DNA from: a virus
Virus genome (UHGV): UHGV-1428581
Length of the DNA: 35,768 nucleotides
Strand: one strand, 5' to 3'
Shown: one piece after another, positions 64-35,701 of the stretch
Layout: each line of letters begins with the position of its first letter
Numbering within the stretch: position 1 is the first letter of the stretch
The notes under the pieces: generated by a model
What the model saw: the letters and a program-made list of their open reading frames with translations, nothing else
The model's database searches: none
Told to the model about the DNA's origin: nothing
Made by a program: the position numbers and the translations under genes

Positions 64-119
64 TGGTACCCGGAGCGGGACTTGAACCCGCACAGCGCGA
101 ACGCCGAGGGATTTTAAAT
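64..119 (-). other. Partial tRNA-Leu(UAA) 3' segment (anticodon loop through CCA), the displaced att core copy (attR-like) of the prophage
   Basis: Reverse complement of 64-119 reads ATTTAAAATCCCTCGGCGTTCGCGCTGTGCGGGTTCAAGTCCCGCTCCGGGTACCA. From memory this matches the 3' 56 nt of the enterobacterial leuZ-type tRNA-Leu(UAA), including the anticodon loop and the T-arm GGTTCAAGTCC. The 5' half of the tRNA is absent: similarity stops at 120 and no acceptor-stem partner is found. Confidence 0.7.
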
Positions 120-257
120 TGGTGTTGATTATTTTAAATATCAATGAGATATGAAAATAATCCGAACATACACCAATAAACTAGCAGCGAGAAAACAATA
201 AGTTACAGCACTGTTTTAGACTATCTTCTGACGCTTATAATACCCCAGATTCAATAT

Positions 258-497
258 TTATTCAGTCGCACGATACCACGATTGCCAGCGGTAGATATTG
301 GTACGAAGCTCCCGTACGCACTCCGCTGATTGTGTGTCCGCCAGCAGATCAGCGTCGCTATCTGCACCAGCGTTACTTAGTTTGCACGGCCGGTTCATCA
401 AATCCGGGGATGGAGTTGGCCGCGTCGATTGCTCGTTGGCGCAGCTGCACAGCGTCGCTATCAAACTTGCACACAGTACGATTCGGGTCATTGACAT
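258..497 (-). CDS. Rz1-like outer-membrane lipoprotein spanin (o-spanin), nested in the +1 frame inside the Rz gene
   Basis: 79 aa, N-terminal signal with Cys-containing lipobox region (LIATLCSCAN). Pro-rich mature part. Entirely embedded within ORF 373-750 in a different frame, the classic Rz/Rz1 architecture. Confidence 0.6.
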   Translation of the reverse strand: MSMTRIVLCASLIATLCSCANEQSTRPTPSPDLMNRPCKLSNAGADSDADLLADTQSAECVRELRTNIYRWQSWYRATE

Positions 498-732
498 ATT
501 TCACCACATCACGATAAACGGTACGGTAAATCACTTTGGCTTCGGCGTTCGCCGTCGCCGCCTTCTGCTCGCCAGCAGCTACAGCCTTTTCTTGCTTCGG
601 TAGCCTTTCTTTATCCTGGCTGTTTACTTGCTCAGAATGCGCGTACCAGCCTTTCAGATACCCCGCCCAGAAAATGCCGGCGCATACCGCCAGTACGCCA
701 CCAACAATTACCAATTTGGTTTTTCCGTTCAT
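373..732 (-). CDS. Rz-like inner-membrane spanin (i-spanin)
   Basis: N-terminal TM helix (LVIVGGVLAVCAGIFWAGYL) followed by a charged coiled-coil-like region. ATG at 732 overlaps the endolysin stop in an ATGA arrangement; GTG at 750 is an alternative start. Rz1 is nested inside. Confidence 0.65.
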   Translation of the reverse strand: MNGKTKLVIVGGVLAVCAGIFWAGYLKGWYAHSEQVNSQDKERLPKQEKAVAAGEQKAATANAEAKVIYRTVYRDVVKYVNDPNRTVCKFDSDAVQLRQRAIDAANSIPGFDEPAVQTK

Positions 733-1265
733 TCGTATAGCCCCCAGCACGTCAAAGTACTTTCCTGATCCCGGCGGTCAACCTGCCCGTAGCAGCCATT
801 CTTCTGGCCTTTTGTCAGTCGGCAATCCCGGCCACCGTCGAACACCCATCGCCGGATCTCCGCGCATGCACCTTTGCGGTCACCGGCATTTAGTTTGCGG
901 TAGAACGTCGAGGGAAAGCATTTTCCCGGGCCGATGTTGTAGGGGCAGAAGCTGGCGATCCCGACCTTCTGCGGTGGCGTAAGCGGAACGTGCACATTCT
1001 TTTCAACCCACGCCAGCGCCTTATCGCGCTCAATAGCATTAACCTTCCTGCACTGTTCTTCAGTTGCTCTTTGGCCCTTAATAACACGCTTACCATCTAT
1101 AACGGTTACTCCATGGCACAACGACCACACCCCCCCAGGATCAACAACGGCCACCAGCGCGTTACCTTCTTTTTCGCTGATAAACTGATCGAACAGCACC
1201 GGCGCAGATGCACCAGCGGCCAGAAGTGCCAGCATTGCGGCACTGAACTTAGCTTTGTTGCTCAT
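729..1265 (-). CDS. SAR endolysin, T4-lysozyme family (GH24), phage-21 R-like
   Basis: Catalytic E-8aa-D-5aa-T signature ([22 protein letters not shown]). Weakly hydrophobic Gly/Ala-rich N-terminal SAR segment ([19 protein letters not shown]). C-terminal region resembles R21 (GACAEIRRW...). Start chosen at the internal Met (MSNKAKF), which overlaps the holin stop. Confidence 0.85.
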
Positions 1266-1479
1266 AGTCCTGTGCCTTCCGCCGATCGTCTTTGATTTTG
1301 AAATACAGATTGGTGAGGTAGGTAAGCAGCCCAAAAACAATACTGGCCAGAACACCTATAGCCGCCCACTGGCTGGGGCTTACCTTATCGAGAAGTTGCA
1401 GCAGCCAGTAGCTGCCGCTGACGGTGGATGTGATATAGGACGTTCCCGCCGCCACATCCGGCAAATTCTTCATTCGCAT
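1249..1479 (-). CDS. Class II holin / pinholin, phage-21 S-like, with dual-start motif MRM
   Basis: 76 aa. [11 protein letters not shown]...[16 protein letters not shown] closely resembles S21 pinholin. Two TM segments. Met1-Arg-Met3 dual start typical of holin/antiholin pairs. Confidence 0.85.
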
Positions 1480-1535
1480 GCCTTACCCCCATGGGGATCA
1501 CTATGTAGAGTAGTGTGAGGGTAAGGTGTGGTTCA

Positions 1536-1683: not shown

Positions 1684-4600
1684 TTACGCCCAGCCTTTGG
1701 ATTTAATGAATCGCGCTACAAAATCTGCGTTGACCTGAACACCTGACCATAATGCATTAGCCTGACGATAACGCGACGGATGAAGGTTGTCATAACGCAG
1801 GGAGGATGGTGTTATGCCGTTTCCGATATCAGTTACATCCTGCGCATAATCAGGATTGTGGTGGTTTTTAAAGTTTTGCAGAAGATCCACCCCGCCGATT
1901 TCACAGTAGTTATCCGGCCAGGCCGCTTTGAGTTGCGCATTATAATTTGTCACAGTCGTTGCTCCTGCCGTTCCTGTCTTTTCATACGAATACGGGAATT
2001 CCGGCAGGATAACGAATTTCCCTGTACCCAGTGAATTGACGATAGCGGTCACATCGCTGATACCTTTAGCCCATGATGCGTTGTTTCGCATGCACTGGAT
2101 TATCACTATGTCATTTTTGAATGTCGGGTGGTCAGTCAGGTATTTTGTTGACCAGCTGTTCTGACGAACCCAGGACAATACAGTCATGGGTACCGCAGAA
2201 GGTACAGAAACAGCCTCACCCGGAGATGAGCGGGTGAATGTGATTTTTGACATATTTCCCCCAACATTTGTAGCGTTGATGATGCCCTCTACCCCGGCAA
2301 GTGTCACGTAGGCCCACGCTCCGCCATTCCATACAGCTTCTTCCTGTGGGGACAGTTCAACCGCGCCACTGGCGGGTATAACCCCACCTGCTGGCATGTA
2401 GGAATTTTTGTATGCGCCGAAAACAAGCGCGGTCTCTGTGGAGTTGGCACCGCCGCGAGCATAGTTAAACGCCCGCAGGCCCAGAGATTCAGAAACCCCG
2501 TTTGCAAAACCCTGTTCCGACAGAAACGAATGGCCAAACAGACTGATTCCGGTGGCGTCGTTTGTCTTTGTCGTTGTGTTTACCGTCGCTTTTGCGATTA
2601 ACCGGATGCGCGTTCCTGTCCCGATGCAAGCCGGGATATCACTGATAATGTCAGAGCCGTACCGCCTGGCAATGCATAGCTGCGCCGGATCGTCAGCGAG
2701 GAAGTAAGCAAAAAGCTCGCTGCCGGGCAGAAAGTTATTGTTCATCCCTGAAACGTAAGTCACTTCCACGCTTTGTTTTTTAAGCAAAAGCCCGTTCAGG
2801 GGGTTGAAAGTCCCGATATATAAATTTCCGTTCCCTCCACTTGCTGTCAGATGAAGGTCAATTTCATAGATAATCGAGTTATCATCAATCGTGTAAGCCG
2901 CGCTGGATGAAATCATGCTGATATTATTGTAACCGGCCCTCAGAACTGGCGTTGTAACCCCTTTATAATTTTTGAACTTCTGGGCGAAAAGCACTTCACG
3001 GATATAGCCAGATGCACCGTCATTGATAAAGTTGGTATCATCAAAGATAGTGTTAGTTCCGGATGCTGAATAGGAAAAATTATCGTTTTTAGTAGTATAT
3101 AGCCTGTTTCCCAGAATATTACAGTTGAACCCCGCAGCAGCCAGAGCCTGCCGGTTTTCCTTCAGGGAGTAAGCACCAAAAATAGTTTCATATTCGCTGG
3201 TTTTTTTACAGACATTATTAACAATGACTGCATCACTGGATGCATAAATCCAAAAGTCTACGGTACGGTTATCCTGAGAGAAGTTTCCGGATGCCTGAAT
3301 CCCGTTAACATTATTAGTTTCTGAGGGTGTTCCTGACACACCAATATCAATGCCACGGTTGAAATTATGCCTGACCGTATTATTTAAGTATTTATTTGAA
3401 TGCGAGTACGACCCGTTACCCCCAAGGTAGATACCAGACTGACCGTTGCATTCGCATGTGTTGTTGCTGATAGTGCAGCGCACAGAACCCTCCCCGGTAA
3501 TCCCATCCCAGAAAGGTGAAGTTGGATACCAGTCCTGTAAAAACTCATCAACAAAATGATTATTACAGTAATTATTGTCTATCAGAAAATCTTCACCACG
3601 ATGAGTAATCCCCATGGAGCAATACTGAATATCGCAAAACAAAATTTTGTTTCCGGCACCAGTACAGCGAATTCCATTGCTGAAGCCCATGACAGTATCA
3701 CCGGGCTTTCCGTTTATGGTCAGTCCATTGATTGTGCAGTCTTTCGAGTTTGCCTGGAGAAATACGCCGTATACCTGAACCGCTGAAATGCTCCCCTGAC
3801 CGCCCGTGTTGAAATAGACACCAAAGTTTTCAAGCCTTGACCCCACGCAAGCCATATTAAAAATAATGTGCATAGGTTCAGCGGGTGCTGTTTCCAGATA
3901 AACACCTGTTTCTGGCCCACCGCCACGGATTGTAACCCCATCCGGTATATCGAAAGACGATGATATTTTATATAGGGAACCCAATATTATTAATTTCACC
4001 GGGCCTTTTTTTGCGGCTTCAATGGTGCGATGAAGTGCCAATGAGAAATCATCATCGAGGGTTATATTTTCACTGAACATTTCAGGAGTCAGAAACCCAA
4101 GGCCGCCGATATTAGAAGCACCAGTAGGTTTTGCCAGTTCAATCATAACATCGGATGCGGATCCAGATTCTGGCAGGATCATTATCGGATTGCCGTCATT
4201 ATTCATTGCGACAATCTTATTTCTCCGCATTACCACCGAAGGTAGAGAGCCTATGTAACTCTCAGGCACACGTAAAGTTCGTATGAAATTGGCGTCGATC
4301 TTCTGATCAAGTTTTTTATCTGCCTCTTTCCATGCGTCCGTATTAGCATCAATTTTGTCATCAACATACTTTTTAGTTGTAGCATCATTGTCATCAATCG
4401 GATCTCCGAGGTTGGCGATTCGATAACCATCAGCGTTAAATGGACCTCCACCAAACAATGGGCGGCGAAGTGCAACACCGAGGTAAATAAACGCGCGTTG
4501 AATGGCCATCCATAGCCGGTCGAAATCTTTGTTAACCGTGTCGGCCAGAAGGTCGCCGTTGTCCTGGTAATCAGTGAGCCTGTACGTCGGCGTTACACGC

Positions 4601-4821
4601 TCAAAAATGACCGTAGAGCCATTCGCCGGCGCGGTAAGAAAAGTAATCTCGCCGCCATTGGTATTACCCACACCTGACACGGTATAGCCGGACGTTACTT
4701 CATTGCCGTTGATTGTCACCTGAATATCGCTGGCGCTAATCAGGTAAAATTCATAGGCAAAGACAGTGGTCAGCCCGTTGGCAGTATAGATGTTATAGGG
4801 TGTCTGGTTCGGTACCGACAT
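1684..4821 (-). CDS. Tailspike / tail fibre: T7 gp17-like N-terminal tail-adaptor domain, central right-handed beta-helix (pectate-lyase-like depolymerase), additional C-terminal domain
   Basis: N-terminal segment (PYNIYTANGLTTVFAYEFYLISASDIQVTINGNEV) resembles the T7 tail-fibre N-terminal domain. The middle region has beta-helix repeat character (NNTCECNGQSGIYLGGNGSYSHSNKYLNNTVRHNFNRGIDIG). Start set at the internal Met (MSVPNQ) at 4821, with GGAG upstream and 18 nt after the TerL stop. Confidence 0.8.
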   Translation of the reverse strand: MSVPNQTPYNIYTANGLTTVFAYEFYLISASDIQVTINGNEVTSGYTVSGVGNTNGGEITFLTAPANGSTVIFERVTPTYRLTDYQDNGDLLADTVNKDFDRLWMAIQRAFIYLGVALRRPLFGGGPFNADGYRIANLGDPIDDNDATTKKYVDDKIDANTDAWKEADKKLDQKIDANFIRTLRVPESYIGSLPSVVMRRNKIVAMNNDGNPIMILPESGSASDVMIELAKPTGASNIGGLGFLTPEMFSENITLDDDFSLALHRTIEAAKKGPVKLIILGSLYKISSSFDIPDGVTIRGGGPETGVYLETAPAEPMHIIFNMACVGSRLENFGVYFNTGGQGSISAVQVYGVFLQANSKDCTINGLTINGKPGDTVMGFSNGIRCTGAGNKILFCDIQYCSMGITHRGEDFLIDNNYCNNHFVDEFLQDWYPTSPFWDGITGEGSVRCTISNNTCECNGQSGIYLGGNGSYSHSNKYLNNTVRHNFNRGIDIGVSGTPSETNNVNGIQASGNFSQDNRTVDFWIYASSDAVIVNNVCKKTSEYETIFGAYSLKENRQALAAAGFNCNILGNRLYTTKNDNFSYSASGTNTIFDDTNFINDGASGYIREVLFAQKFKNYKGVTTPVLRAGYNNISMISSSAAYTIDDNSIIYEIDLHLTASGGNGNLYIGTFNPLNGLLLKKQSVEVTYVSGMNNNFLPGSELFAYFLADDPAQLCIARRYGSDIISDIPACIGTGTRIRLIAKATVNTTTKTNDATGISLFGHSFLSEQGFANGVSESLGLRAFNYARGGANSTETALVFGAYKNSYMPAGGVIPASGAVELSPQEEAVWNGGAWAYVTLAGVEGIINATNVGGNMSKITFTRSSPGEAVSVPSAVPMTVLSWVRQNSWSTKYLTDHPTFKNDIVIIQCMRNNASWAKGISDVTAIVNSLGTGKFVILPEFPYSYEKTGTAGATTVTNYNAQLKAAWPDNYCEIGGVDLLQNFKNHHNPDYAQDVTDIGNGITPSSLRYDNLHPSRYRQANALWSGVQVNADFVARFIKSKGWA

Positions 4822-4838
4822 ACGAGGGACTCCGGCGG

Positions 4839-6449
4839 CTAGTAATCTACGGCGACCATGTGATCGCCATCGTTTGGTTGCCAATGTTCCCGCGCCTGTG
4901 CGGTCGGAATCCCGACCAATTTACCAATGCGCACTGGTGTTGAACTGATAGCGCCGGAGCCGGAGTCGATAAAGTCATCGGGCTGATTAGTCAGCGCCGG
5001 GTTAAAGTCGCGCATCTGGTCGTACATTGGGCCGTCGAGCACGTCGGTATGCGCCCAGAGGAACTGCGACGACAGCGGTGCCTCGAAGGCATCGAGGATG
5101 CGTTTTTGCTTGTTGGTGACGCTGAACTCTTCCCGTACGCCGCAGCCGGTACCCTTCAGCGCCTGAATCAACAGTTTCCCGGCGAAGCTGCCCGGGCCGT
5201 TCACTTCAACGCATACCAGCGGGATCTGATACTTCAGCACCAGTTCTTTAATCTGCATCACCTGACCGCCGGTGATTTTGTCGTTGTCGTCGAATTCAGC
5301 CAGTTCACCGGTAAGCCCCTGACAAACATGCCAGTACAGGTGTCCTCGTGCGTCGGTGAAAATCAGGGAGAATGCCGAGGCATCAGCCTTAACTTTGCCG
5401 GTGGCCACATCCCACCACGCGACAGCACCAACTATTTGTGTCTGGCCCAGCCACATCGAGCAGGAGCGGTTCGCGTATCGGATTTCGGGCTGGACGTTAT
5501 ACTCGCGGATACGGTCGGGATCGAGTCGAACTTTACCAATCGGTTTACTGTGCAGCTGGTACTGGCTGTCCCATTCGTTGACGGTGCGGCACTCTTTACG
5601 GCGCAGCAGCAGTTCATCATGATCGAAACGGCCCGGCCACGCGCAACCGGCGTAAAAATCCACGACCGTTTCGGGCGGCGCCGCGAACTCTACGCCGTCT
5701 TCCGTCAATCGGTAATCAGTACCCTCGATCAGTAGCCTGGCGGCTTTGTGGATCCCCACGAAAACATATTCCGGGCGGAACGGTACCCGGTATCGTTTTC
5801 TGGTCGCCTTCTTCGCTTCGACGCGATGCTCTTTATCGAACAGCTTTATCGTGAGGCAATCAGCGCCCTCCGCTTCTTTTTCATCGTAAAGGCTGTCGTG
5901 GGTATGCGGAGTACCGATGAACAACTTACGGCCTCCGGGTATCAAAATATGCGTCTGCTCGCTTAGGCGATAGCGCAGTTTTTCGCGAGCCTCCGGAGTC
6001 TGGATATTGCCGGGTACCTCCACGTCATCATTCTGGCACTCGTTGGCACGGGCGCCGGTAACGTTCGACAGAATGCCTTTTGCGAACATGCTGGCGTTAC
6101 GCATATCCAGCGCGCCGTTTACCCACCATTGCTCGATGGTACCGATGCCGTCAGGCAACATGCCTTTCGTCAGTGGATGGTTGCGCAGAACGTTTTGTGT
6201 ATCGCGGCTGGTCTTTCTGGCGGTCGTATCGGATTCTGACTGGTGCAAAATGCGGTACTGGCGATCGCAGTAATACCGCCAGGCGTTATAAACGCCCAGG
6301 ATAGTGGATTTACCAAAGCCACGAAAACAGCGAAGCACCGCGAGGTTTCCGCGATGCTCCAGCCAGTGGCAGGCTTTATAGTGGCAGTCCGGCACATCCC
6401 AGTTCATCCGCTCCGCCCACATCAGGAAAAAGGCGAGGAACGAAATCAT
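4839..6449 (-). CDS. Terminase large subunit
   Basis: 536 aa. Walker A motif FRGFGKSTILG near the N-terminus. C-terminal nuclease-like domain with acidic residues. ATGA overlap with the upstream small terminase gene. Confidence 0.85.
   Translation of the reverse strand: MISFLAFFLMWAERMNWDVPDCHYKACHWLEHRGNLAVLRCFRGFGKSTILGVYNAWRYYCDRQYRILHQSESDTTARKTSRDTQNVLRNHPLTKGMLPDGIGTIEQWWVNGALDMRNASMFAKGILSNVTGARANECQNDDVEVPGNIQTPEAREKLRYRLSEQTHILIPGGRKLFIGTPHTHDSLYDEKEAEGADCLTIKLFDKEHRVEAKKATRKRYRVPFRPEYVFVGIHKAARLLIEGTDYRLTEDGVEFAAPPETVVDFYAGCAWPGRFDHDELLLRRKECRTVNEWDSQYQLHSKPIGKVRLDPDRIREYNVQPEIRYANRSCSMWLGQTQIVGAVAWWDVATGKVKADASAFSLIFTDARGHLYWHVCQGLTGELAEFDDNDKITGGQVMQIKELVLKYQIPLVCVEVNGPGSFAGKLLIQALKGTGCGVREEFSVTNKQKRILDAFEAPLSSQFLWAHTDVLDGPMYDQMRDFNPALTNQPDDFIDSGSGAISSTPVRIGKLVGIPTAQAREHWQPNDGDHMVAVDY
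4902..4917. promoter_or_regulatory. Palindrome GGTCGGAATCCCGACC (copy 2), inside the 3' end of the TerL coding region, 81 nt upstream of the tailspike start
   Basis: Exact 16-mer; encodes VGIPT in TerL. Confidence 0.5.
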
Positions 6450-6793
6450 TTTTTGCCTTTTTGTTGCAGCCTCTCGATCACTTCCAGCGCTTTACGTTCA
6501 GCAGCTGCTACCTGCTGACCTAACTGGAACGCTTCATCGTCCGGATCCTCCCCGCCGGGTTTAGGCGTTCCCCCGCGCGTGTGCATGCCAATCAGCGAGT
6601 GGACTTTTACCAGCAGCGTCAGCGATGCGGCCGCGTTCTTCTTATGCCAGTAGCGGTCGCCGCGTTCCTGTTTTGTGTGCTTTGTGATTTCCTTCCCTGC
6701 CCCCGGCCAGTTGTCCGGATCGGCTTCTTCCAGAACTACATCGGTGAGCTTATCGCTAAGAGCGGTCAGGCGGGTTTTGTAATCTGAATGCAT
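6446..6793 (-). CDS. Putative terminase small subunit
   Basis: 115-aa basic/acidic protein immediately upstream of, and translationally coupled (ATGA) to, the terminase large subunit. Called by position; no motif seen. Confidence 0.5.
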   Translation of the reverse strand: MHSDYKTRLTALSDKLTDVVLEEADPDNWPGAGKEITKHTKQERGDRYWHKKNAAASLTLLVKVHSLIGMHTRGGTPKPGGEDPDDEAFQLGQQVAAAERKALEVIERLQQKGKK

Positions 6794-6822: not shown

Positions 6823-6840
6823 ATGATGTATGCTTTTCGA

Positions 6841-6856
6841 GGTCGGAATCCTGACT
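6841..6856. promoter_or_regulatory. Degenerate copy of the palindrome (GGTCGGAATCCTGACT), copy 3
   Basis: 13/16 identity to the consensus. It sits between TerS and the plus-strand moron. Confidence 0.35.
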
Positions 6857-6874
6857 ATTACAAGGAGCATAAGA

Positions 6875-22423: not shown

Positions 22424-22434
22424 GGCGATAATTC

Positions 22435-23291: not shown

Positions 23292-23310
23292 TACCTCTCC
23301 TCAACAATAA

Positions 23311-23773: not shown

Positions 23774-23785
23774 TAACCACCCCAG

Positions 23786-24630: not shown

Positions 24631-24632
24631 GG

Positions 24633-25390: not shown

Positions 25391-25620
25391 GTCCGCTTCT
25401 CCCGCCAAAAATTCAATCTCTCTTTGAAAAACTCCCGGTAGCTTTCCGGCGTCGCTGCAATCTGTTCTACGATGGCCTGTCGAGTAACTTTCTTCTCGAA
25501 CAGCTGGCGTATGAGTGCCGAGGCGCGCATGTCGTAGTGCTCTTTGATCTGGCACTCCTGCGGCCATTTGGCGCGATTGAGCGGTAAGCCGGGCGGCAAG
25601 TAGTCTGATTGCCCGGCCAT
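25387..25620 (-). CDS. Hypothetical 77-aa protein
   Basis: ORF in an operon context. Confidence 0.4.
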   Translation of the reverse strand: MAGQSDYLPPGLPLNRAKWPQECQIKEHYDMRASALIRQLFEKKVTRQAIVEQIAATPESYREFFKERLNFWREKRT

Positions 25621-25623
25621 GCC

Positions 25624-26292: not shown

Positions 26293-26330
26293 TGGTCTTT
26301 CCTCGGTTAAATCGCGCTGGTCAGGCGCGG

Positions 26331-28726: not shown

Positions 28727-28728
28727 AC

Positions 28729-28950
28729 TCAGATCCCCAGCGAGTCAGCCAGCTGACGGCAGGCGATTTCGTATTCTTTCTGGGTGAGTCCCGCTTCCTG
28801 CAGGTCTGCCTTGCGCAGTTCATAGCGTTCCCAGATTGTCAGCGCAGTAGCGCGACGCTCTTCGAAAATCGATTCGATATCTTCCATCGGGACTTGTACC
28901 CCGTTCCGGCGAAACCCATTCCGCCAGGTGATGCGGTCTTGTGTTCTCAT
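28729..28950 (-). CDS. Hypothetical 73-aa early protein
   Basis: Internal Met start (MRTQDRITW) preceded by the GAGGAAAGACCAATG module. The longer ORF upstream of this Met overlaps the ydaT-like gene. Confidence 0.5.
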   Translation of the reverse strand: MRTQDRITWRNGFRRNGVQVPMEDIESIFEERRATALTIWERYELRKADLQEAGLTQKEYEIACRQLADSLGI

Positions 28951-28970
28951 TGGTCTTTCCTCGGTACAGG

Positions 28971-29417
28971 TTAAACGCTGGTCAGGCGCTGTGTTTCTCG
29001 CATAGCTTGCAAAGCTCTTGCGACTTGCTGCGGCCCATCTCTGGCGTCGAGTAACAACGCGATAATCGCCGCGGCAAACTCGCGAATGGCCACACAAATT
29101 AAATACTGGGTGGACATACCCAAGCGCGCGTAACGTTCTGCCGGCAGCGCCGCTTCCATCGCTTTGACCAGCGCCAGAGTTTTGGCTCTCGCGGCTTTGG
29201 TCTCGCCTCGCAACCAACGAAAAATTTGTTGGCGGTTGTTGTTGATTGCCCGCCAGTCGGCGTTTCCATCTGCATCTTCGATCTGGTGCAGCTTCAGCGA
29301 ACCGGTATTACCACCAAGACGAAACCACATGCGGCTTATCTCGATAGCAACCAGCTCCTGCCCGCTTTCCGCTGCCCAGTTAAAGATCTCTCGTTTAAGT
29401 TCTTCGAGGTATTCCAC
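28971..29417 (-). CDS. YdaT-like protein (Rac prophage ydaT family; CII-like domain)
   Basis: 148 aa. NNNRQQIFRWLRGETKAARAKTL resembles YdaT NNQQNIYHRWLKGETKTQREKIQKL. Follows the cro-like gene as in Rac. Confidence 0.65.
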   Translation of the reverse strand: MEYLEELKREIFNWAAESGQELVAIEISRMWFRLGGNTGSLKLHQIEDADGNADWRAINNNRQQIFRWLRGETKAARAKTLALVKAMEAALPAERYARLGMSTQYLICVAIREFAAAIIALLLDARDGPQQVARALQAMRETQRLTSV

Positions 29418-29479
29418 TTCGAGCGTCTCCTGTCGCTGAAAATTGATTAAGCGTAATCAGATTTCGATAACGCAGATTG

Positions 29480-29713
29480 TTAAGCTGCATTCTGTTCCGG
29501 CAGTCCGTCAGTTGGTTTTCGGTAAATATTGGGGAGTAGATCATGCGGTGTTACTTGATAGCCAGTTGCAGCGGCCCATTTCAATGCAGTTGCAGCACCA
29601 AGTAGGCATTTTCCTGATGCAACGCGACTGACATAGCCCTGCGTCTCGCCAACCACTTGAGCGAAATCCTGCTGGCGAACGCCAGAGGTCTTTAGATAGG
29701 TTTTAAGATCCAT
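29480..29713 (-). CDS. Cro-like HTH regulator (YdaS / DUF1019-type)
   Basis: 77 aa. HTH VRQQDFAQVVGETQGYVSRV. AGGAGG SD. Divergent from the repressor gene. Confidence 0.75.
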   Translation of the reverse strand: MDLKTYLKTSGVRQQDFAQVVGETQGYVSRVASGKCLLGAATALKWAAATGYQVTPHDLLPNIYRKPTDGLPEQNAA

Positions 29714-29812
29714 TTGTCCTCCTAGAATGTATGTGACACATGAATATTAGTATCACGAATATAGAAGTGTCAATAGTTACACGATTGGGAGGAAATTAAT
29801 TTTACGAATAAT
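29714..29812. promoter_or_regulatory. Divergent promoter/operator region between cro-like and repressor genes
   Basis: Leftward candidate promoter TTGACA-N18-TAATAT (minus strand). Weak rightward GTGACA-N18-GAATAT. Repeated lambda-like half-sites GTGACAC, GTATCAC, GTTACAC and inverted GTGTCAA. An 11-bp palindrome ATGTGACACAT. Confidence 0.5.
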
Positions 29813-30277
29813 ATGGGCGCCATGAGAAAGAAAACGCTTGATGCAGCTGAAGCTGATGCAGCCCAAAGGCTGCGTGACATATGGAACGAGAAAAAAGTAA
29901 CTTTACGTCTCACTCAGGAAAAGGCGGCAGACGCTCTCGGCTTTAGCACGCAGGCTACTGTTAGTCAGTATTTGAATGGCAGCATTCCACTAAACACAGA
30001 TGCGACATTAAAATTTTCAGCTCTTCTGGGCGTAAAACCTGAGGACATTAGGCCAGACCTCGCTGAACTAATGAATTATGTCAGGAAATCAGGATCCCAC
30101 GTTCAAGATTATTCAGCTGCTGGCTGGCGACTTCTGAAACCAGAAGAGGCAGAATTAGTAGAACTGTACGAAAGACTTCCTCTGAGCGAAAAAGAAAGGC
30201 ATCTAACTGAATTAAAAGATAAAGTCAGTGGATTCGACCGCCTTTTTGAAGAACTTCTAGCCACAAGAAAACAATAA
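29813..30277 (+). CDS. Prophage repressor, XRE-family HTH, lacking an S24 (LexA-like) autocleavage domain
   Basis: 154 aa. HTH LTQEKAADALGFSTQATVSQYLNG. The C-terminal half is helical and charged with no Ser-Lys dyad or Ala-Gly site. Confidence 0.7.
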   Translation: MGAMRKKTLDAAEADAAQRLRDIWNEKKVTLRLTQEKAADALGFSTQATVSQYLNGSIPLNTDATLKFSALLGVKPEDIRPDLAELMNYVRKSGSHVQDYSAAGWRLLKPEEAELVELYERLPLSEKERHLTELKDKVSGFDRLFEELLATRKQ

Positions 30278-30293
30278 ATTCCCCTCCAAAATA

Positions 30294-30319
30294 ATCCCGC
30301 ATCGTCGGGATTTTTTTTA
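30294..30319 (+). terminator. Rho-independent terminator after the repressor gene
   Basis: ATCCCG-CATCGT-CGGGAT followed by TTTTTTTT. Confidence 0.7.
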
Positions 30320-30372
30320 TCCTTTTTTATCAATGGCATACAAAAAATATTCGCATTACGATTATTTTTATC

Positions 30373-30401
30373 TTGACCATAAATATACGCATAACTAATA
30401 T
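30373..30401 (+). promoter_or_regulatory. Near-consensus sigma70 promoter TTGACC-N17-TAATAT, rightward early promoter candidate (PL analogue)
   Basis: Hexamers at 30373-30378 and 30396-30401 with a 17-nt spacer, in an AT-rich stretch downstream of the repressor terminator. Confidence 0.55.
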
Positions 30402-30549
30402 CTACCACATCAACGACGCACTAACCACGCGGCAGTTGTTCAGAAACAGTTCTGACAGTCCGGAAAGACGGGCACGAATTCTTCGGGTCGCCGACAGTAC
30501 GATGACATGCGGGAAAGACCGCAACGAATACGAATTGCTGTGTGTAGTC

Positions 30550-30577
30550 TTGGCCCGGGCGCCCCGGGCATTTTTTT
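30550..30577 (+). terminator. Rho-independent terminator about 170 nt downstream of the early promoter (attenuator or small-RNA terminator)
   Basis: GCCCGGG-CGC-CCCGGGC followed by ATTTTTTT. Confidence 0.6.
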
Positions 30578-30909
30578 AACACAGTAACGATTTATGCGAC
30601 CCTTCAGTGAAAACTGAAGCCCTCGAAAAGAGGGACCCTGTGAGGAAAGACCAGTGAGCCTGACCAGCTCTGGCGCCGGGAAAGACCGGGAGGAAAGACC
30701 AATGACCAACGGGCATGACCAGCCCTGACAGCCGGGAAAGACCGGCAACCTTTAGATGGCAAAAGGCCCGCACAAGGCGGGCCAGTTACCCCGAACGGTG
30801 ACCAAACCATTCGGACTTATCACAAGCGACCAAGCTTGTGATGAGGAAAGACCAATGCCGACAGAGTCAACACTGATCGGCTCTGAGTATACATCAACAA
30901 GGAGTCGCT

Positions 30910-31233
30910 ATGGAAGCGCTTACCATCCCCGTAACTGTTTACGTTATGGCCACAACGAACCCATATCTACCAACGTCTTATCACTCATTCACCTGTGACA
31001 TGTCACAGCAATACCCTGATCTGTATGTCCTCGTTACTACCAAAACGGTAGAGGTTCCCATTCCGGCTTTAGAGCCAATCGACATTATTGGTATGCAGGT
31101 TAATGCCCTTCGCGCGAAGAAAGAGAAAATCTCTGCCGAAGCAAAGAAGGAGCTGGGTGTTATTGAAGACCAGATTCAGCAGCTGCTGTGCATCGATCAC
31201 TCTCCGATTGAAGAAAGCGACGTACCGTTTTAA
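30910..31233 (+). CDS. Hypothetical 107-aa early protein
   Basis: AAGGAG 6 nt upstream of ATG; first substantial ORF of the rightward operon. Confidence 0.55.
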   Translation: MEALTIPVTVYVMATTNPYLPTSYHSFTCDMSQQYPDLYVLVTTKTVEVPIPALEPIDIIGMQVNALRAKKEKISAEAKKELGVIEDQIQQLLCIDHSPIEESDVPF

Positions 31234-31277
31234 TTAACCGGCGCGTGACCTGCGCCAGAAACCAAGAGGAAAGACCA

Positions 31278-33485
31278 ATGACCATCTACAACGGCTTATT
31301 TGAGCCAAAGAAATCGGCGATTAAAGACTGCGGCGCCGTGCAGCTGGCGATCGCCATCGATGCGCCAAACAAAAAAGTGGCCGAAAGCATTATGACCGGC
31401 AAACTCTGGGAATCATACCCGGCCAATGGTGACAACTATTTCAAACCGAAACTGTGGGAACACATTGAAGGCCAGCCGCTGCCTACCGTTGGCCAGTTCG
31501 ATGAGTCATTCGCCCTGCAGCATACTTTTGACGGTGAAAAATGGATTTCTACTGTGCAGGATAGCGCTTCCGGAAGTAGTGCTGGTTTACCTGCCGACGA
31601 TGAAGTGATCGACCTGATGACCGTTTCCGCAGAGGAACGCTTTGCTGCCGTCCTGCTTTTTAGCACCGCTGCGATTGATGGCCACCTTTATTCTCAGGTT
31701 GTGGATTATCTGGATAACCTGAAAAACCACGATGGCGAATTTGAAGAGGAAGATCGCTTTAACTTTAATGTGCTGTGCGCCCTGCAAAATAACTTCCCGG
31801 TTCAAAGCATGCGTGTGGAAGGTCTGAATAATCTTGTTCAGGGTATTTTCTCCCACTTTGAAAACCAGACGCCTGGCAAAGCGGCTATCTCTCAGTTCGT
31901 TAAACGCTGGCTTGAGAACCCGGGCAAGCGAGACGAACTGGCCCCCGGCGTATATAAAAATACCGCTCTCAGCACCAGCACCGATGATAAAACACCCGTG
32001 GTAATTTCTAAGCGGGGTTATAAACACACATATGCAACGCTGGATCAGGAGATCGCTACCGCCCTTCTCCCGCTGGCGCCTGATGCGCCGGTACTATCCG
32101 GAAACCTTCTGGACGCTAAGAAGATGATTTCCGATGACCGGGAAGACTTTAAACGCTGGTCAGCATCGCTGCACACCACGCCGCAGATACTCAAATACGA
32201 CCGCGCCAGCATCTTCGGCGTGGTACAGAACGTACCGGCGAAAGATACCTACCATTTCCCTGACAGCCTGCGCCGCCACATCGATTCATGGCTGGAGGCA
32301 AACGGCCGCTTTGAAGAAACCGAGAAAGGATCCGTTAAACAACCAGAGGCGACGCAAAATACCGCCTCAAACGTGGGCGAAAAAGCGGAAGTGCCGCCGT
32401 CGGTTGTAACCGATACCCAGGCGAAACAGGCGCGTGAGGCTCTCAATGATATGGGCTATGGGGTATATGCATCTGGCGAGGGGGCTGAGCCGGAAGAGAA
32501 GTTAAGCGTTAAGGCTGAAAAAGTGGCAGGCGAAGCCGCTCGTTTGGCTCGTGATATCAACCTCAAAGATCGCATGCCAGATGCCGGAGATTTGATTCCA
32601 GCAACTCAACCAAATGAAAATATAGCCTCAAAACAAATTGAATCATATCTATCTGAATTGAGTGACGACCAGGCCAAAGCAAACCTTAGTGTCTGGAATC
32701 GAGTCCAGCGCACAGATCCGGCCTTCGTCGAAAAGAACAGTTTCGGCGCAGGGCTTCACTCAATCCGGGCGCAGTACATGCTGATGCGCGCAACGGAAGT
32801 TTTCGGAATGGAAGGAACCGGTTGGGGCGTTGATATCAAAGAAGAGCGCATAGATCGAGGTGTGCCGCTTATGGAGCCAATACAGGACCAATCAGGAAAA
32901 ATAATTGGCCAGAAACCGGTAAGGGACGGGGATGGCTCATTATTCTGTTTATCCGTACATACAATTCGGATTGAACTCTGGTACCTGCGAGACGGAAAGA
33001 AGGGGCGCATTCCGGCCTATGGACATACGGATTACATCACCAAGGGTGGTGATGGTGCATTAAAAATGGAGAAAGAAGCCGCCAAAAAATCACTGACTGA
33101 CGCTACAACCAAAGCACTATCCCACCTCGGATTTGGTGCAGACGTTTACATGAACATGCATAACGACAATGAATACACTTCAAAATTGAATGAGATATTC
33201 GAAATCAAAAAAGCCAGCGAAAACATTGAAGATATAGTGCGACTTCGTCAGGAATTAGACGACGACCTTACCTCCGTTGCTGAAACCCTATCTACTGGCG
33301 TGTCTGTTAACGAAGTTGAAAAGGTGTTTGGCACTATTGCCCGAAAACTCGAAGTGCACCGCAAGGATGCAGAATCAAAAGGTGACACTCAGCGTTCTCG
33401 GTACCTCAGTGGCCGGTTGCGCCGCCTCACTGATATAAAAAATGGACGTATCGCCGAACTGAATAAATCCGAGGAGAAAGCATAA
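31278..33485 (+). CDS. Fusion protein: about 500-aa N-terminal domain of unknown function plus C-terminal Erf/Rad52-family single-strand annealing domain
   Basis: Start at the ATG that follows GAGGAAAGACCA. The C-terminal region (...TDATTKALSHLGFGADVY) resembles the Erf motif (...SSYARKYCLNGLFGIDD). Confidence 0.6.
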   Translation: MTIYNGLFEPKKSAIKDCGAVQLAIAIDAPNKKVAESIMTGKLWESYPANGDNYFKPKLWEHIEGQPLPTVGQFDESFALQHTFDGEKWISTVQDSASGSSAGLPADDEVIDLMTVSAEERFAAVLLFSTAAIDGHLYSQVVDYLDNLKNHDGEFEEEDRFNFNVLCALQNNFPVQSMRVEGLNNLVQGIFSHFENQTPGKAAISQFVKRWLENPGKRDELAPGVYKNTALSTSTDDKTPVVISKRGYKHTYATLDQEIATALLPLAPDAPVLSGNLLDAKKMISDDREDFKRWSASLHTTPQILKYDRASIFGVVQNVPAKDTYHFPDSLRRHIDSWLEANGRFEETEKGSVKQPEATQNTASNVGEKAEVPPSVVTDTQAKQAREALNDMGYGVYASGEGAEPEEKLSVKAEKVAGEAARLARDINLKDRMPDAGDLIPATQPNENIASKQIESYLSELSDDQAKANLSVWNRVQRTDPAFVEKNSFGAGLHSIRAQYMLMRATEVFGMEGTGWGVDIKEERIDRGVPLMEPIQDQSGKIIGQKPVRDGDGSLFCLSVHTIRIELWYLRDGKKGRIPAYGHTDYITKGGDGALKMEKEAAKKSLTDATTKALSHLGFGADVYMNMHNDNEYTSKLNEIFEIKKASENIEDIVRLRQELDDDLTSVAETLSTGVSVNEVEKVFGTIARKLEVHRKDAESKGDTQRSRYLSGRLRRLTDIKNGRIAELNKSEEKA

Positions 33486-34060
33486 TGACTTCCACCACTG
33501 CTATTGCCATCGCTGCCGACTACCAGAGCTTGCTGCAACTGCTGGAAAGCTCTGATGAACTGACTCCGGAAATGATCGCTGATACGTTGGAAGGTCTGGA
33601 AGGTGCGCTGGCCGATAAACTGGATGCGGTCATGGTGATCAAGCGTAACTATCTGGGTAACGCCAACACCTGCGATGATGAAATGAAGCGCCTGGCTGCG
33701 CGCAAGAAATCCTTTGAAAATAAAGATAAGGCCCTGAGTAAGTATATTCTGTTCTGCCTGATGGCGGCCGGGCTAGATAAGCTGAAAACAGCCAAAAACA
33801 CGTTTACTGCCCGTAAAGGTAGCGTCAGCGTCATCATTGATGATGTTGAAAAAATCCCTGACGAAATTGATGGTATTCAATTGGTCGATGTAAAAACAGT
33901 TATTATCCCAGATAAGAAGGCAATCAAGGATATCATCGAATCGGCACAGGCAGCAGCGGCTCAGATTACCGCTGACGGCGGAGAGATACCGGAAGAGCTG
34001 TTAAAACCAGTGCCGGGCGCTCACCTTGAGATTGGCGAACGTTCATTACAGGTGCGCTGA
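33485..34060 (+). CDS. Siphovirus Gp157-family protein (recombination-module associated)
   Basis: 191 aa. N-terminal pattern (AIAADYQSLLQLLES...E....TLEGLEG......DAV..VIKRN) typical of Gp157. ATGA-coupled to the erf-like gene. Confidence 0.55.
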   Translation: MTSTTAIAIAADYQSLLQLLESSDELTPEMIADTLEGLEGALADKLDAVMVIKRNYLGNANTCDDEMKRLAARKKSFENKDKALSKYILFCLMAAGLDKLKTAKNTFTARKGSVSVIIDDVEKIPDEIDGIQLVDVKTVIIPDKKAIKDIIESAQAAAAQITADGGEIPEELLKPVPGAHLEIGERSLQVR

Positions 34061-34061
34061 T

Positions 34062-34247
34062 ATGCTGAAACTCACACTGAAACGAGGCGACGCTCTTCAC
34101 GTCGTGTTTCCGGATGGTACTAACGGGATAATCGAAGCCTGCGCACGTTGCGAACTGGCTATGCATTTCCCGCGTAGTACCAAAATCACCCGCGAAAATG
34201 GCGCGTTCCTGAATAAACCAAACCTGATTAAGCATAATCAGAAATAA
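34062..34247 (+). CDS. Hypothetical 61-aa protein
   Basis: ATG 1 nt after the gp157 stop, with AGGTG upstream. Confidence 0.4.
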   Translation: MLKLTLKRGDALHVVFPDGTNGIIEACARCELAMHFPRSTKITRENGAFLNKPNLIKHNQK

Positions 34248-34295
34248 AAACTAACCATCGCTAGCATAGCTGCCCCTTTGAAAACGGAGAACGCT

Positions 34296-34499
34296 ATGCT
34301 GCGATGGCAACCGGGAGCTGTATTGCTCTCAGATTTCGATATCAAGATTGGCCGGTTATCCGCCAGCGTACGAAAGAAGACCCTGACCAGGACTGAAATC
34401 GAACGCGCATGCGAAGAAGCTGATAACGCGATAGTCGGCATGATGAGGAAAGACCATGCGACACGAAAACGACATCATCTCAAGGGAGGAGATGATTGA
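34296..34499 (+). CDS. Hypothetical 67-aa protein
   Basis: GGAG 6 nt upstream of ATG. Overlaps the xis-like start by 44 nt. Confidence 0.35.
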   Translation: MLRWQPGAVLLSDFDIKIGRLSASVRKKTLTRTEIERACEEADNAIVGMMRKDHATRKRHHLKGGDD

Positions 34500-34701
34500 A
34501 CTAACCGGAACCACTCTTAAATCCAGGCAATGCGAAGCACTGCGCCGGGCTGGTATCTTCTTCATAGAAAGGGCTGATGGACACCCAAAAACAACATGGG
34601 GCCACTTCACTAACCCGATAAAATACCGCAACCAGAACACCGAAGAGTTGCAGGAAGAAGAACCAGATTTCGGAGCGGTATTCAATGGCCGGAAAGCGTA
34701 A
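34456..34701 (+). CDS. xis: Excisionase-like protein (DUF4224-type)
   Basis: 81 aa. ISREEMIELTGTTLKSRQCEALRRAGIFF is typical of DUF4224 excisionase-like proteins. Immediately upstream of, and overlapping, int. Start uses GAGGAAAGACC-ATG. Confidence 0.6.
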   Translation: MRHENDIISREEMIELTGTTLKSRQCEALRRAGIFFIERADGHPKTTWGHFTNPIKYRNQNTEELQEEEPDFGAVFNGRKA

Positions 34702-35701
34702 AAACCCTGCCGATAACTGGATGCCGCCCCGCGTCTACCGTGGTAAAGCGGCATATGAATTCAGGAATAAGGATAACAAGGCTATCAGGCTATGTGCGCT
34801 CTCAGAGCCGCAGTCAGCCGTTTGGTTGGCCTATGAAAAAGCTGTGGGTGAAGAAAAAGAGAGGAGAACCTTTCAGACTCTTGCCGATCAGTTTATGTGC
34901 TCCCCTGATTTTATGGATTTGGCAGCTGAAACCAGAAAAGACTACGTAAAGTATTCAGGCAAAGTTCTACCCGTTTTTGGGAAAATTAACCCTGATAAAA
35001 TTAAACCTGAACATATCCGCCGTTACATGGATCAGCGCGGCCTATCCAGCCGAACTCAGGCCAACCGGGAAAAGAGTTTTCTTTCGCGGGTATTCCGCTG
35101 GGGTTATGAGCGGGGTTACGTTCAGCATAATCCCTGTCAGGGCGTTAAGAAATTCAAAGAGACGGCCAGGGAGCGTTACATCACCGACGAAGAATACAAA
35201 GCGGTTTACGACGTTGCTCCGGACGTGGTTCGCGCCACCATGGAAATCGCTTATTTGTGTCTGGCCAGACAAAGCGATGTGCTGGCTTTGACTGAAGACC
35301 AGATACGGGAAACCGGGATCTTTATCCGCCAGGGCAAAACAGGCGTGAAGCAAATCAAAGCATGGACGCCACGCCTGCGAGCCGCTGTCGCCCTCGCCCG
35401 TTCCCTGCCGTTAAAGCCGGGTATCCGTAGCCTGTTTGTCATTCACCAGACCAGCGGCGGCAAATACACTCGCGACGGTTTTAATTCACGCTGGCGCGAC
35501 GCCAAAATCGCAGCTCAGGAAAAGAACCCGCACCTGCAGATAGATTTCACTTTCCATGATCTGAAGGCGAAAGGTGTTTCTGATCTGGAAGGAAGCCTCG
35601 AAGAGAAACAGGCGATTTCTGGTCATAAAAATTCGAGGCAAACGGCAATTTACGACAGAAAAACTAAAATCGTGCCGGTGGTCGGCGGTCAGAAAAAATG
35701 A
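34685..35701 (+). CDS. int: Tyrosine site-specific integrase (lambda Int family) with N-terminal arm-binding domain
   Basis: 338 aa. N-terminal PPRVYRGKAAYEFR arm-type motif. Catalytic region with HDLKAKG and the terminal tyrosine context TAIYDRK. Confidence 0.9.
   Translation: MAGKRKNPADNWMPPRVYRGKAAYEFRNKDNKAIRLCALSEPQSAVWLAYEKAVGEEKERRTFQTLADQFMCSPDFMDLAAETRKDYVKYSGKVLPVFGKINPDKIKPEHIRRYMDQRGLSSRTQANREKSFLSRVFRWGYERGYVQHNPCQGVKKFKETARERYITDEEYKAVYDVAPDVVRATMEIAYLCLARQSDVLALTEDQIRETGIFIRQGKTGVKQIKAWTPRLRAAVALARSLPLKPGIRSLFVIHQTSGGKYTRDGFNSRWRDAKIAAQEKNPHLQIDFTFHDLKAKGVSDLEGSLEEKQAISGHKNSRQTAIYDRKTKIVPVVGGQKK

Follow-up and report, generated by a model that had tools for sequence, protein, structure and literature searches.

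A lambdoid-backbone prophage, probably of a YeP4-like temperate podovirus, whose late module is headed by a conserved CG-alternating element and the gene for a small helix-turn-helix protein

Temperate podoviruses that have a T7-like virion and no reported phage RNA polymerase (RNAP) are already documented, namely the epsilon15/BPP-1 group, phages YeP4-6 and Legionella phage LME-1. The 'epsilon15 subgroup' includes BPP-1, BcepC6B, VP5 and Liberibacter SC1 (Hardies et al. 2016, PMC4819975). YeP4-6, which are unclassified Caudoviricetes, were induced from Y. enterocolitica O:9 and showed podovirus morphology by electron microscopy (PMC6548840). LME-1 is a temperate phage whose amplification depends on a RepO homologue and which has a T7-like structural gene order and virion (portal, adaptor, nozzle and fibres); its description mentions no phage RNAP (PMC12407071). 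LME-1 and the epsilon15/BPP-1 group (PMC4819975) are precedents of a T7-like virion module with no reported RNAP of the phage. Here we describe the virus genome UHGV-1428581, a stretch of 35,768 nucleotides (nt) referred to below as the window. A first-pass annotation, made from the sequence alone, had read it as a mosaic temperate phage in which a lambdoid/Rac-type backbone drives a T7-like morphogenesis module, possibly of an undescribed lineage. We found that it is probably a YeP4-like temperate podovirus prophage, lacking an RNAP of its own, built on a lambdoid backbone and dependent on the host RNAP. At the head of its late module lies a conserved pair, a CG-alternating element and a gene for a 98-amino-acid (aa) helix-turn-helix (HTH) protein, which we discuss as a possible late control device.

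Gene identities were taken from Pfam, PHROG and NCBIfam profile searches, and the matches bore out the mosaic: a lambdoid early region of the Rac/Qin type is joined to a podoviral morphogenesis module. The prophage is thus a recombinant of two modules, the lambdoid early region and a YeP4-like podovirus late module. The minus strand carries nearly all genes from 29713 down to 373. Read leftward, these are a cro-like gene, ydaT, an O-like initiator gene and dnaB, then a block of nin-like accessory genes and, over 20 kb, the genes for morphogenesis and lysis, with the late module running from 21650 down to 1684. On the rightward arm (29813-35701) the gene for a 154-aa repressor is followed by those for a 746-aa nuclease and gp157; beyond them lie a DUF4224 gene, placed where an excisionase would be expected, and the gene for a tyrosine integrase. 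The hallmarks of a lambdoid early region are present, that is, divergent repressor and cro genes, an O-type initiator with iterons inside its gene, a nin-like region, and xis-int at the attachment site (att).

The late module is close to that of YeP4-6, to which it is 63-85% identical; from the HTH gene to the tailspike N-terminus, most late proteins fall within 51-85% identity. In YeP4 the genes for the HTH protein, the 73-aa protein, portal, Bbp19, scaffold, capsid, adaptor, nozzle, GNAT, gp14-like protein, small terminase (TerS), large terminase (TerL) and tailspike N-terminus are syntenic with those of the window. YeP4 has an integrase and no RNAP, and the CG-alternating element lies upstream of its HTH gene. 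The early regions of the two differ: that of YeP4 encodes DNA polymerase, primase and helicase of the BPP-1/BcepC6B/Xfas53 type (PMC8579659), for which no match was found in the window, whereas the window has the lambdoid O/DnaB/YdaT set. The integrase and attachment site of YeP4 are also different; in addition, YeP4 gave no tblastn match to the 1001-aa protein of the window and covered only 8% of the 904-aa protein.

A second relative, the leuZ prophage of E. coli 23GD11002 (NZ_CM180093.1), is already annotated and has the same mosaic, gene order and tRNA-Leu site (70% coverage at 83.5% nucleotide identity; most proteins 76-100% identical). It differs in its tailspike body, a sialate O-acetylesterase, in its other morons, in an IS110-family insertion and a DUF2971 gene in the early region, and in the absence of the gp49-like gene, the MT-A70 methylase, the HNH endonuclease and the ASCH-like gene. 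Similar prophages also occur in Raoultella, Enterobacter, Serratia and Klebsiella. Most of the late module was present in only 3 of 5,426 complete E. coli genomes, and the lineage is rare in this species. In a collection with one genome per species, relatives of the portal were found at 70 loci, in Enterobacterales, Pseudomonas, Stenotrophomonas, Burkholderiales and Acinetobacter, and at least 120 viral contigs, mostly of 33-39 kb, carry the exact pattern of the element. The only isolated phages with the HTH gene are YeP4-6 and a few Acinetobacter phages. With induced podoviruses this close, a syntenic annotated prophage and these many loci and contigs, the suggestion of an unusual, undescribed lineage was not sustained; the comparisons place the window in the T7 supergroup, as a variant of the YeP4-like temperate podoviruses that is built on a lambdoid backbone.

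The late module was found together with the lambdoid O/DnaB/YdaT early region in Enterobacter, Raoultella, Serratia and Symbiopectobacterium, and with the YeP4-type DNA-polymerase/primase early region in Pluralibacter, Trabulsiella, Pectobacterium and Symbiopectobacterium. Phages BUCT708 and BUCT709 have an early region 85% identical in nucleotides to that of the window, but their late module is epsilon15-like. The homology stops at ~22131, just before the CG-alternating element and the HTH gene, and the HTH gene lies on the late-module side of this recombination boundary. We noticed that these two 'Stenotrophomonas' phages (vB_SmeS_BUCT708/BUCT709, OM816835.1), which match the window at 22131-32471, have a late module that looks podoviral (portal, adaptor, nozzle, SLT); their host or morphology ('S' = siphovirus) labels may be wrong. 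Similarly, Escherichia phage vB_EcoM_APEC (MT664721.1; 41% GC), published as a myovirus, encodes O, DnaB and a podoviral module of the window's type (portal, capsid, tubular tail A and B, internal virion proteins and a T7-type TerL), and its assignment as a myovirus looks doubtful. In loci with the YeP4-type early region (L001 at ~17250-17460; L010, L012, L015, L020 at ~8560-8790), direct repeats, for example AACCTAGAC three times or CCACTGAAG twice, and a (TA)n stretch sit between the primase gene and the element, and this repeat region looks like a replication origin.

The first-pass annotation had held that the late module reproduces T7 gp6.7 to gp19 almost one-for-one. From its head to the lysis genes, the module below the HTH gene reads as follows.

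20948-21650, minus strand: two small proteins of 73 aa and 156 aa (PHROG 9015 and PHROG 17476)
19319-20944, minus strand: portal, 541 aa (PF12236, E 1.7e-122)
19089-19322, minus strand: Bbp19-family small head protein (PF25181, E 3.4e-12)
18254-19102, minus strand: scaffold or prohead-protease-like protein (PHROG 3742, E 2.6e-80; weak match to PHROG 458 'protease', E 4.1e-8)
16679-17644, minus strand: major capsid protein (PF19821, E 7.4e-70)
16643-16662, minus strand: hairpin resembling an intrinsic terminator, right after the capsid gene (8-bp stem with 7 GC pairs, then a T run)
16056-16619, minus strand: adaptor, or tubular tail protein A (PHROG 394 'tail protein', E 6.3e-62)
14065-16056, minus strand: nozzle, or tubular tail protein B (PF25675, E 3.6e-8; PHROG 376, E 1.9e-220)
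13613-14062, minus strand: GNAT acetyltransferase in the position of gp13, internal virion protein A (IVP-A) (PF00583, E 6.2e-12)
13122-13745, minus strand: internal virion protein B, gp14-like (PHROG 418, E 2.2e-41; PF24072 weak, E 0.0016)
10402-13116, minus strand: 904-aa internal virion protein in the gp15 position, with an SLT transglycosylase domain (PF01464, E 2.7e-9; PHROG 1044, full length)
7397-10402, minus strand: 1001-aa internal virion protein D of the T7 gp16 family (PHROG 342, E 1.8e-183)
6446-6793, minus strand: candidate TerS, by position alone (PHROG 9277, no annotated function, E 1.2e-41)
4839-6449, minus strand: TerL of the T7 gp19 type (PF22530, T7 RNaseH-like domain, E 2.3e-6)
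1684-4884, minus strand: tailspike/tail fibre with a gp17-type N-terminal anchor (PF03906, E 1.6e-10, residues 30-178) and a right-handed beta-helix body (PF13229, E 1.5e-6)
1249-1479, minus strand: class II holin of the P21 S type (PF04971, E 1.8e-30)
729-1355, minus strand: endolysin, a phage lysozyme (PF00959, E 9.4e-21)
373-750, minus strand: Rz-like spanin (PHROG 2536, E 2.1e-46)

The order portal, scaffold, capsid, gp11, gp12, gp13-16 equivalents, TerS-TerL is shared with T7 and the Autographiviridae, and at the profile level the portal, the nozzle central domain, gp14, gp16, the tail-fibre N-terminus and TerL match T7 families. The portal, the gene in scaffold position, both tubular tail proteins, the internal virion block with its SLT protein and the gp17-type fibre adaptor were all recovered as annotated. 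The one-for-one correspondence did not hold throughout, however. In the window the fibre and lysis genes follow the terminase, unlike in T7, and the SLT domain sits on the protein in gp15 position, whereas T7 has it on gp16. The 73-aa and 156-aa proteins showed no similarity to T7 gp6.7 or gp7.3 by tblastn. T7 has its own single-subunit RNAP and class I/II genes, whereas the window phage has neither and is temperate.

A specific T7 lineage was not supported either. When 18 T7 proteins were compared with the window by tblastn, a significant match was obtained for gp19 only; TerL is 32% identical to it over 215 aa, and its best PDB matches are the T7 terminase entries 4bij and 8dgc (E 1e-16). 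The portal, adaptor and nozzle are 28-33% identical to those of epsilon15/BPP-1-group phages (SPN1S, BUCT711, BMP-1). The nozzle, 77% identical to that of YeP4 and ~32% to those of BMP-1 and SPN1S, retrieved BMP-1, SPN1S, BcepC6B, VP2 and Liberibacter phages, and both nozzle and adaptor group by sequence with epsilon15/BPP-1 and not with T7, whose gp11 and gp12 gave no BLAST match. Among solved structures the best matches were 8ck0 for the portal (E 3.4e-56), 8ck1_E for the adaptor (E 6.3e-11) and 8ck1_A for the nozzle (E 7.2e-102); the T7 portal 6r21 matched the window portal with a phmmer E of 5.3e-7. A literature lookup of the PDB codes 8CK0/8CK1 gave nothing useful, and the phage of these entries was placed as epsilon15-like indirectly, the 8ck0 portal being near that of the Uetakevirus SPN1S (E 2e-178).

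The capsid had no phmmer match in the PDB. By profile search it reached the LME-1 capsid 9eg4 (E 7.5e-19) and that of the T7-like cyanopodovirus P-SCSP1u (E 4.9e-5), and neither the comparison with the epsilon15-type capsid of SPN1S (E 0.34) nor that with T7 gp10 was significant; the latter (hhalign E 0.028, probability 1.8%) involved residues 170-240 only, and the gp10-like N-terminus proposed earlier was not confirmed. No tblastn match to the capsid, TerL or TerS was found in SPN1S or BUCT711. The window shares with the epsilon15/BPP-1 group (Uetakevirus such as SPN1S, Rauchvirus BPP-1/BMP-1, BcepC6B) the temperate podovirus character, the lack of an RNAP gene, none being annotated in the Uetakevirus records of SPN1S and BUCT711, the order portal, small protein, scaffold/protease, capsid, and the set IVP-A to IVP-D (PMC4819975). 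It differs from that group in its capsid, which has no detectable similarity to the epsilon15 type, and in its terminase: the epsilon15-type TerS and TerL are of another type and stand at the front of the late operon, whereas the T7-type TerL of the window stands at the end. LME-1 is remotely homologous in its portal (E 3.5e-15), its adaptor (9efk_T, E 0.0039) and, by the profile match given above, its capsid, but it is very distant, has another host and a head decoration protein, is not SOS-inducible, and its repO is split by integration.

The window has homologues of tubular tail proteins A and B and, after them, a syntenic series of internal virion proteins A-D, in line with the definition given in PMC4819975. 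On the protein comparisons, the late module can be assigned to the broad 'T7 supergroup' of transient-tail podoviruses, with a T7-type terminase and gene order, an epsilon15-type portal, adaptor and nozzle, and four internal ejection proteins. Profile and BLAST searches against T7 families, which the first-pass annotation had proposed, thus returned in part the epsilon15-like structural proteins that it had named as the result speaking against its T7 reading.

As had been stated, no single-subunit RNAP was found between the att remnant and the integrase gene. T7 RNAP gave no tblastn match in the window, and the complete YeP4 genome, the E. coli relative and the 70 related genome loci, searched up to 10 kb from the portal, were negative as well; no RNAP Pfam domain was detected in any open reading frame (ORF) of the window that was scanned, and every ORF of more than 300 aa was otherwise assigned. 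We also considered an RNAP hidden in the large internal virion proteins and rejected it as unlikely, since these proteins gave near-full-length PHROG matches to the gp16 family and the SLT-protein family. Since the phage has no RNAP, the late genes must be transcribed by the host RNAP, in agreement with the earlier proposal, and we infer that all transcription is carried out by the host enzyme.

Two features stand at the head of the late module.

21979-21997, minus strand: CG-alternating element CTCGCGCACGCGCGCGTTT, one exact copy in the window
21669-21965, minus strand: XRE-type HTH protein of 98 aa, encoded by the gene that opens the late module (PHROG 16553, E 2.2e-42)

The element CTCGCGCACGCGCGCGTTT is a CG-rich stretch of ~19 nt, perfectly alternating between pyrimidine and purine and followed by TTT, directly upstream of the HTH gene. 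Its consensus, CTCGCGC-RY-GCGCGCGTTT, was found as a single, strand-specific copy per locus from Enterobacterales to Acinetobacter (including L001 at 17467, L009-L078 and L082-L201). In ~50 genome loci, among them AT-rich Acinetobacter, it keeps to the same strand and usually precedes the HTH domain by 28-80 nt, and in 106 of the 120 viral contigs listed an ORF of the HTH98 family begins within 450 nt downstream. The element and the HTH98 family are absent from epsilon15-like phages, and the element also from BMP-1, HTVC034P and vB_EcoM_APEC. A conserved peptide ('PRARARF') was considered as the cause of conservation and rejected. In Enterobacterales an in-frame stop lies between the element and the HTH ORF, and the substitutions alter residues while keeping the alternation, so the constraint is on the nucleic acid and not on a peptide. 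No mention of the element sequence was found in the literature, and the conserved element/HTH pair appears to be unreported. In one locus, L018 of Symbiopectobacterium purcellii (~8078-9040), element and HTH domain are ~930-960 nt apart instead of ~30 nt as elsewhere, with a transposase-like frame between them; judged from the sequence, this insertion probably inactivates that prophage.

In most related loci, irrespective of the early region, a homologue of the HTH protein (31-97% identity) is encoded 0.5-4 kb ahead of the portal gene and on its strand. Klebsiella and Raoultella are the recorded sources of proteins 99% identical to that of the window. Its AlphaFold (AF2) model (mean predicted local distance difference test, pLDDT, 75.6) is a lambda-repressor-like XRE domain with top matches to the N-terminal domain of CapH, P22 c2 and restriction-modification controller (C) proteins. 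Against C.BclI, C.Kpn2I, C.EcoT38IS and C.AhdI, TM-scores of ~0.55-0.6 to the target were obtained with weak E values of 0.06-0.3. Profile searches found no closer named relative. The first-pass annotation had pointed to this protein as a possible late-control factor, and being inherited with the late module in most related loci it is a reasonable candidate.

A near-palindromic, conserved element upstream of an HTH gene would suit a regulator and its operator. That the two form such a pair and govern the late module is a serious possibility, although we would put its chances somewhat below even. By analogy with restriction-modification controller proteins, we propose that the protein could act as a small XRE regulator at a dyad site upstream of its own gene. 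A wider reading is more tentative: that the element and the adjacent XRE protein of 76-100 aa are an undescribed, lineage-wide late switch that takes the place of phage RNAP and its promoters in RNAP-less temperate podoviruses of the T7 supergroup. Taken jointly with this, and just as doubtful, the switch family would span Enterobacterales, Pseudomonas, Stenotrophomonas, Burkholderiales and Acinetobacter and travel with the virion module.

Several observations weigh against control of the late genes by this pair. A consensus scan for a late promoter performed no better than on shuffled sequence. Only ~11-30 nt separate the element from the start codon of the HTH gene, with a Shine-Dalgarno-like sequence downstream of the element, which may therefore be in the 5' untranslated region rather than in a promoter. 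RNA folding upstream of the HTH gene was unremarkable (z-score 0.98). The fold matches of the HTH protein are weak (E 0.03-0.3), and an XRE fold alone does not mark an activator, a repressor or a packaging protein. No Q-type antiterminator was found in Pfam/PHROG scans of the ORFs between dnaB and the portal gene, in which ORFs of 76, 63 and 54 aa were checked against Pfam only.

It is also conceivable, if unlikely, that the element and the 98-aa protein serve in packaging, the one as a pac- or cos-like site and the other as the small subunit that recognises this DNA, and that the late genes are expressed by read-through from the early operon, with which the late module is co-directional in both types of early region. 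The pac sites of phages often lie in or beside small-terminase genes that head late operons, and the strict occurrence of one strand-specific element per genome would suit such a site. The HTH protein gave sub-threshold Pfam matches to the small-terminase family PF10668 (E 0.003) and to HTH_23. However, a separate small ORF overlapping TerL already occupies the position of T7 gp18, the HTH model is a plain XRE domain without an oligomerisation domain, and the T7-type terminase acts in T7 on terminal repeats and not on a pac site within a gene.

Somewhat less probable is a conserved RNA terminator or attenuator, in which a small hairpin (5-bp GC stem, 4-nt loop) and the UUU after it would shield the late module from early transcription until overcome by antitermination. 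The element is located exactly at the boundary of the early and late modules, the minimum-free-energy fold contains the small hairpin, and most of the variation is in the predicted loop, while the stem is mostly invariant and a T run always follows. Terminators, though, are normally kept in structure and not in sequence; here the flanking CCT is conserved too, and the folding z-score is not significant. The stem is short, with a U run of just 3-4 nt, and the terminator scan did not call it, whereas a palindromic operator would give the same variability at its centre. An operator of the HTH protein is our preferred reading of the element.

The limits of the prophage were determined from its two ends.

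62-120, minus strand: att remnant, the 3' 58 nt of tRNA-Leu (direct sequence reading)
34456-35701, plus strand: DUF4224 gene in the excisionase position and tyrosine integrase, the latter at 34685-35701 (PF13986, PF00589, PF22022)

Positions 1-61 are host DNA, with a tRNA-operon terminator hairpin at 1-21. The att remnant matches the int-proximal tRNA-Leu of the E. coli 23GD11002 relative, where that tRNA gene lies ~130 nt past int, and the alignment breaks exactly at 121. ARAGORN found no complete tRNA gene in the window, and no Rfam families were detected. The remnant and the integrase gene thus bracket the prophage inside the window, as the first reading, with int next to a tRNA att, had it. 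The remnant together with the synteny to the leuZ-integrated E. coli prophage supports integration at tRNA-Leu, and the window appears to be a complete, functional-looking prophage of ~35.7 kb, its viability being judged from the intact ORFs.

A decaying or cryptic remnant that no longer makes particles is improbable. The sequence comes from a metagenome scaffold (ENA ERZ28650058 scaffold_100), and relatives do show insertions, the ~930-bp gap with a transposase-like frame between element and HTH domain in L018 and the IS110-family element in the early region of the E. coli relative. In the window, however, all modules are present and ORFs are full-length, with no frameshift in any large gene; an identical portal sequence was found on 6 contigs, and the close relatives YeP4-6 are inducible (PMC6548840). 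Although T7-like phages and prophages with both integrase and RNAP exist (PMC10134795) and the late gene order parallels T7, the idea that this is a genuine T7-family (Autographiviridae-type) prophage, its RNAP gene being located beyond the window or lost of late, can practically be dismissed, because the entire prophage is enclosed between the tRNA remnant and the integrase gene within the window, the RNAP searches in the relatives were negative as well, and the core proteins besides TerL have no BLAST-level similarity to T7.

The early region consists of the following genes and sites.

29813-30277, plus strand: 154-aa XRE (HTH_3) repressor (PF01381, E 4e-6; no peptidase S24 domain)
29744-29773, minus strand: PR-like promoter of the cro-like gene, TTGACA-18-TAATAT (consensus scan)
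29480-29713, minus strand: Cro-like HTH gene (PF01381, HTH_3)
28971-29417, minus strand: YdaT-family protein (PF06254, E 3e-21)
27734-28726, minus strand: O-like replication initiator (PHROG 9773 and 345 'replication initiation O-like')
26331-27737, minus strand: DnaB-type replicative helicase (PF03796, E 1.5e-71; PF00772)
22121-26292, minus strand: nin-like accessory region (Pfam and PHROG matches)
31245-34060, plus strand: recombination module of a 746-aa RecE-like exonuclease (PHROG 2489 'exonuclease', E 4e-283) and a gp157-family protein (PF05565, E 2.5e-30)

The profile matches agreed with the first-pass annotation in the divergent Cro-like and S24-less repressor genes, the YdaT-like gene, the O-like initiator with iterons inside its gene (three, spaced by 23 nt, at 28342-28416) and dnaB. 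Of the 'erf plus gp157' module only gp157 stood: neither the 746-aa protein nor any other gave an Erf or RecT match in Pfam, PHROGs or NCBIfam, and the 746-aa protein, with a further partial match to NF007259 exonuclease VIII/RecE, is RecE-like. The C-terminus of the repressor is DicA-like, with a partial match to NF007257 DicA (E 7.8e-14) that is under the family cut-off. Given this C-terminus and the missing S24 domain, induction probably proceeds without RecA-stimulated self-cleavage of the repressor. We identified no antirepressor. The repressor gene is paired with a YdaT-family gene, an arrangement shared with the cryptic prophages Rac and Qin.

The E. coli homologue of the O-like initiator carries a RepO annotation. 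The phage encodes its own DnaB, and in the scans of the ORFs between dnaB and portal mentioned above no P-type helicase loader was matched. The nin-like region contains a Ref/DUF968 nuclease, DUF1367, an ASCH-like 112-aa protein, an HNH endonuclease, an MT-A70 methylase and further unannotated ORFs; with phages BUCT708 and BUCT709 it shares 85% nucleotide identity.

Some genes of the late module deserve comment. The 73-aa protein is conserved as far as Pseudomonas, and the protein in scaffold position has no Pfam match. The capsid gene likely starts near 17584-17590; the capsid is called as 301 aa in the ENA scaffold, and databases use a start that gives a shorter protein than the GTG-start ORF. 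The terminator-like hairpin after it is in the same position as the T-phi terminator after gene 10 of T7. The PF25675 match of the nozzle is confined to the central domain, which is conserved across all podoviral tail groups (Hardies et al., PMC4819975). Likewise, the gp14-like protein probably has its true start near 13610, its E. coli homologue being 162 aa long. The match of the 1001-aa protein covers positions 199-1226 of the 1235 in the PHROG 342 profile, and as it begins only at 199 the protein is without the lysozyme end of gp16. The candidate TerS ORF overlaps the start of TerL and is 64% identical to the ORF that precedes TerL in YeP4; of the terminase genes as first annotated, TerL was confirmed, while TerS is placed by position. 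The tailspike N-terminus is 40% identical to that of SPN1S and 52-67% to those of YeP4 and the E. coli relative.

Genes that had not been noted earlier are Bbp19, the GNAT in gp13 position and two putative morons. T7 gp13 (IVP-A) is reported to be acetyltransferase-like (PMC4819975), so the GNAT is the expected IVP-A equivalent. It is kept in most related loci and is also found in Pelagibacter podoviruses. In phiKMV-like phages a GNAT (Rac) triggers cleavage of the alpha subunit of the host RNAP. We noticed that such a Rac-like cleavage would be counterproductive for a GNAT-bearing phage that relies on host RNAP.

The morons are the following.

17804-18220, minus strand: N4 gp49/Sf6 gp66-family gene with its own terminator at 17757-17783 (PF13876, E 1.8e-33)
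6830-7396, plus strand: 188-aa protein with a signal-peptide-like N-terminus (PHROG 8033, no annotated function)

The first, between the scaffold and capsid genes, is found in neither YeP4 nor the E. coli relative, and ~170-180 nt of it are 87-89% identical to 'Gp49 family protein' genes in several E. coli chromosomes. The second has no Pfam match and lies in an AT-richer patch that separates the gp16-like gene from TerS. Other opposite-strand genes occupy this spot in YeP4 and in the E. coli relative, which marks it as a cargo hot spot. PADLOC, run on the morons and accessory genes, found no defence systems.

From this inventory a life cycle can be proposed. The DicA-like, S24-less repressor would keep the PR-like promoter silent; upon derepression, the leftward operon would express cro, ydaT, O and dnaB, and theta replication would start at the iterons. 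The host RNAP would then transcribe the co-directional late module, either arriving from upstream or initiating there, with the CG-alternating element and the small XRE-type protein at the module head possibly serving as a late switch borne by the module. The strong terminator after the capsid gene could raise the relative yield of capsid. DNA would be packaged by the T7-type terminase into a short-tailed virion with a depolymerase-like tailspike. On infection, the GNAT, gp14-like, SLT and gp16-like proteins may be ejected and form a trans-envelope channel, as proposed for the group (PMC4819975), and lysis would be brought about by the P21-type holin, the lysozyme and the Rz spanin.

The mosaic seen in the window is already annotated in RefSeq genomes, and its late module is placed between the T7 and epsilon15 groups. 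In Enterobacterales, free recombination joins this YeP4-type late module to at least two types of early region that are unrelated to each other. If the late-switch reading of the element and the HTH protein is true, it would show how these phages manage with no polymerase of their own and would provide a simple sequence marker for them, and the pair would make the virion module 'plug-and-play' behind unrelated early regions.

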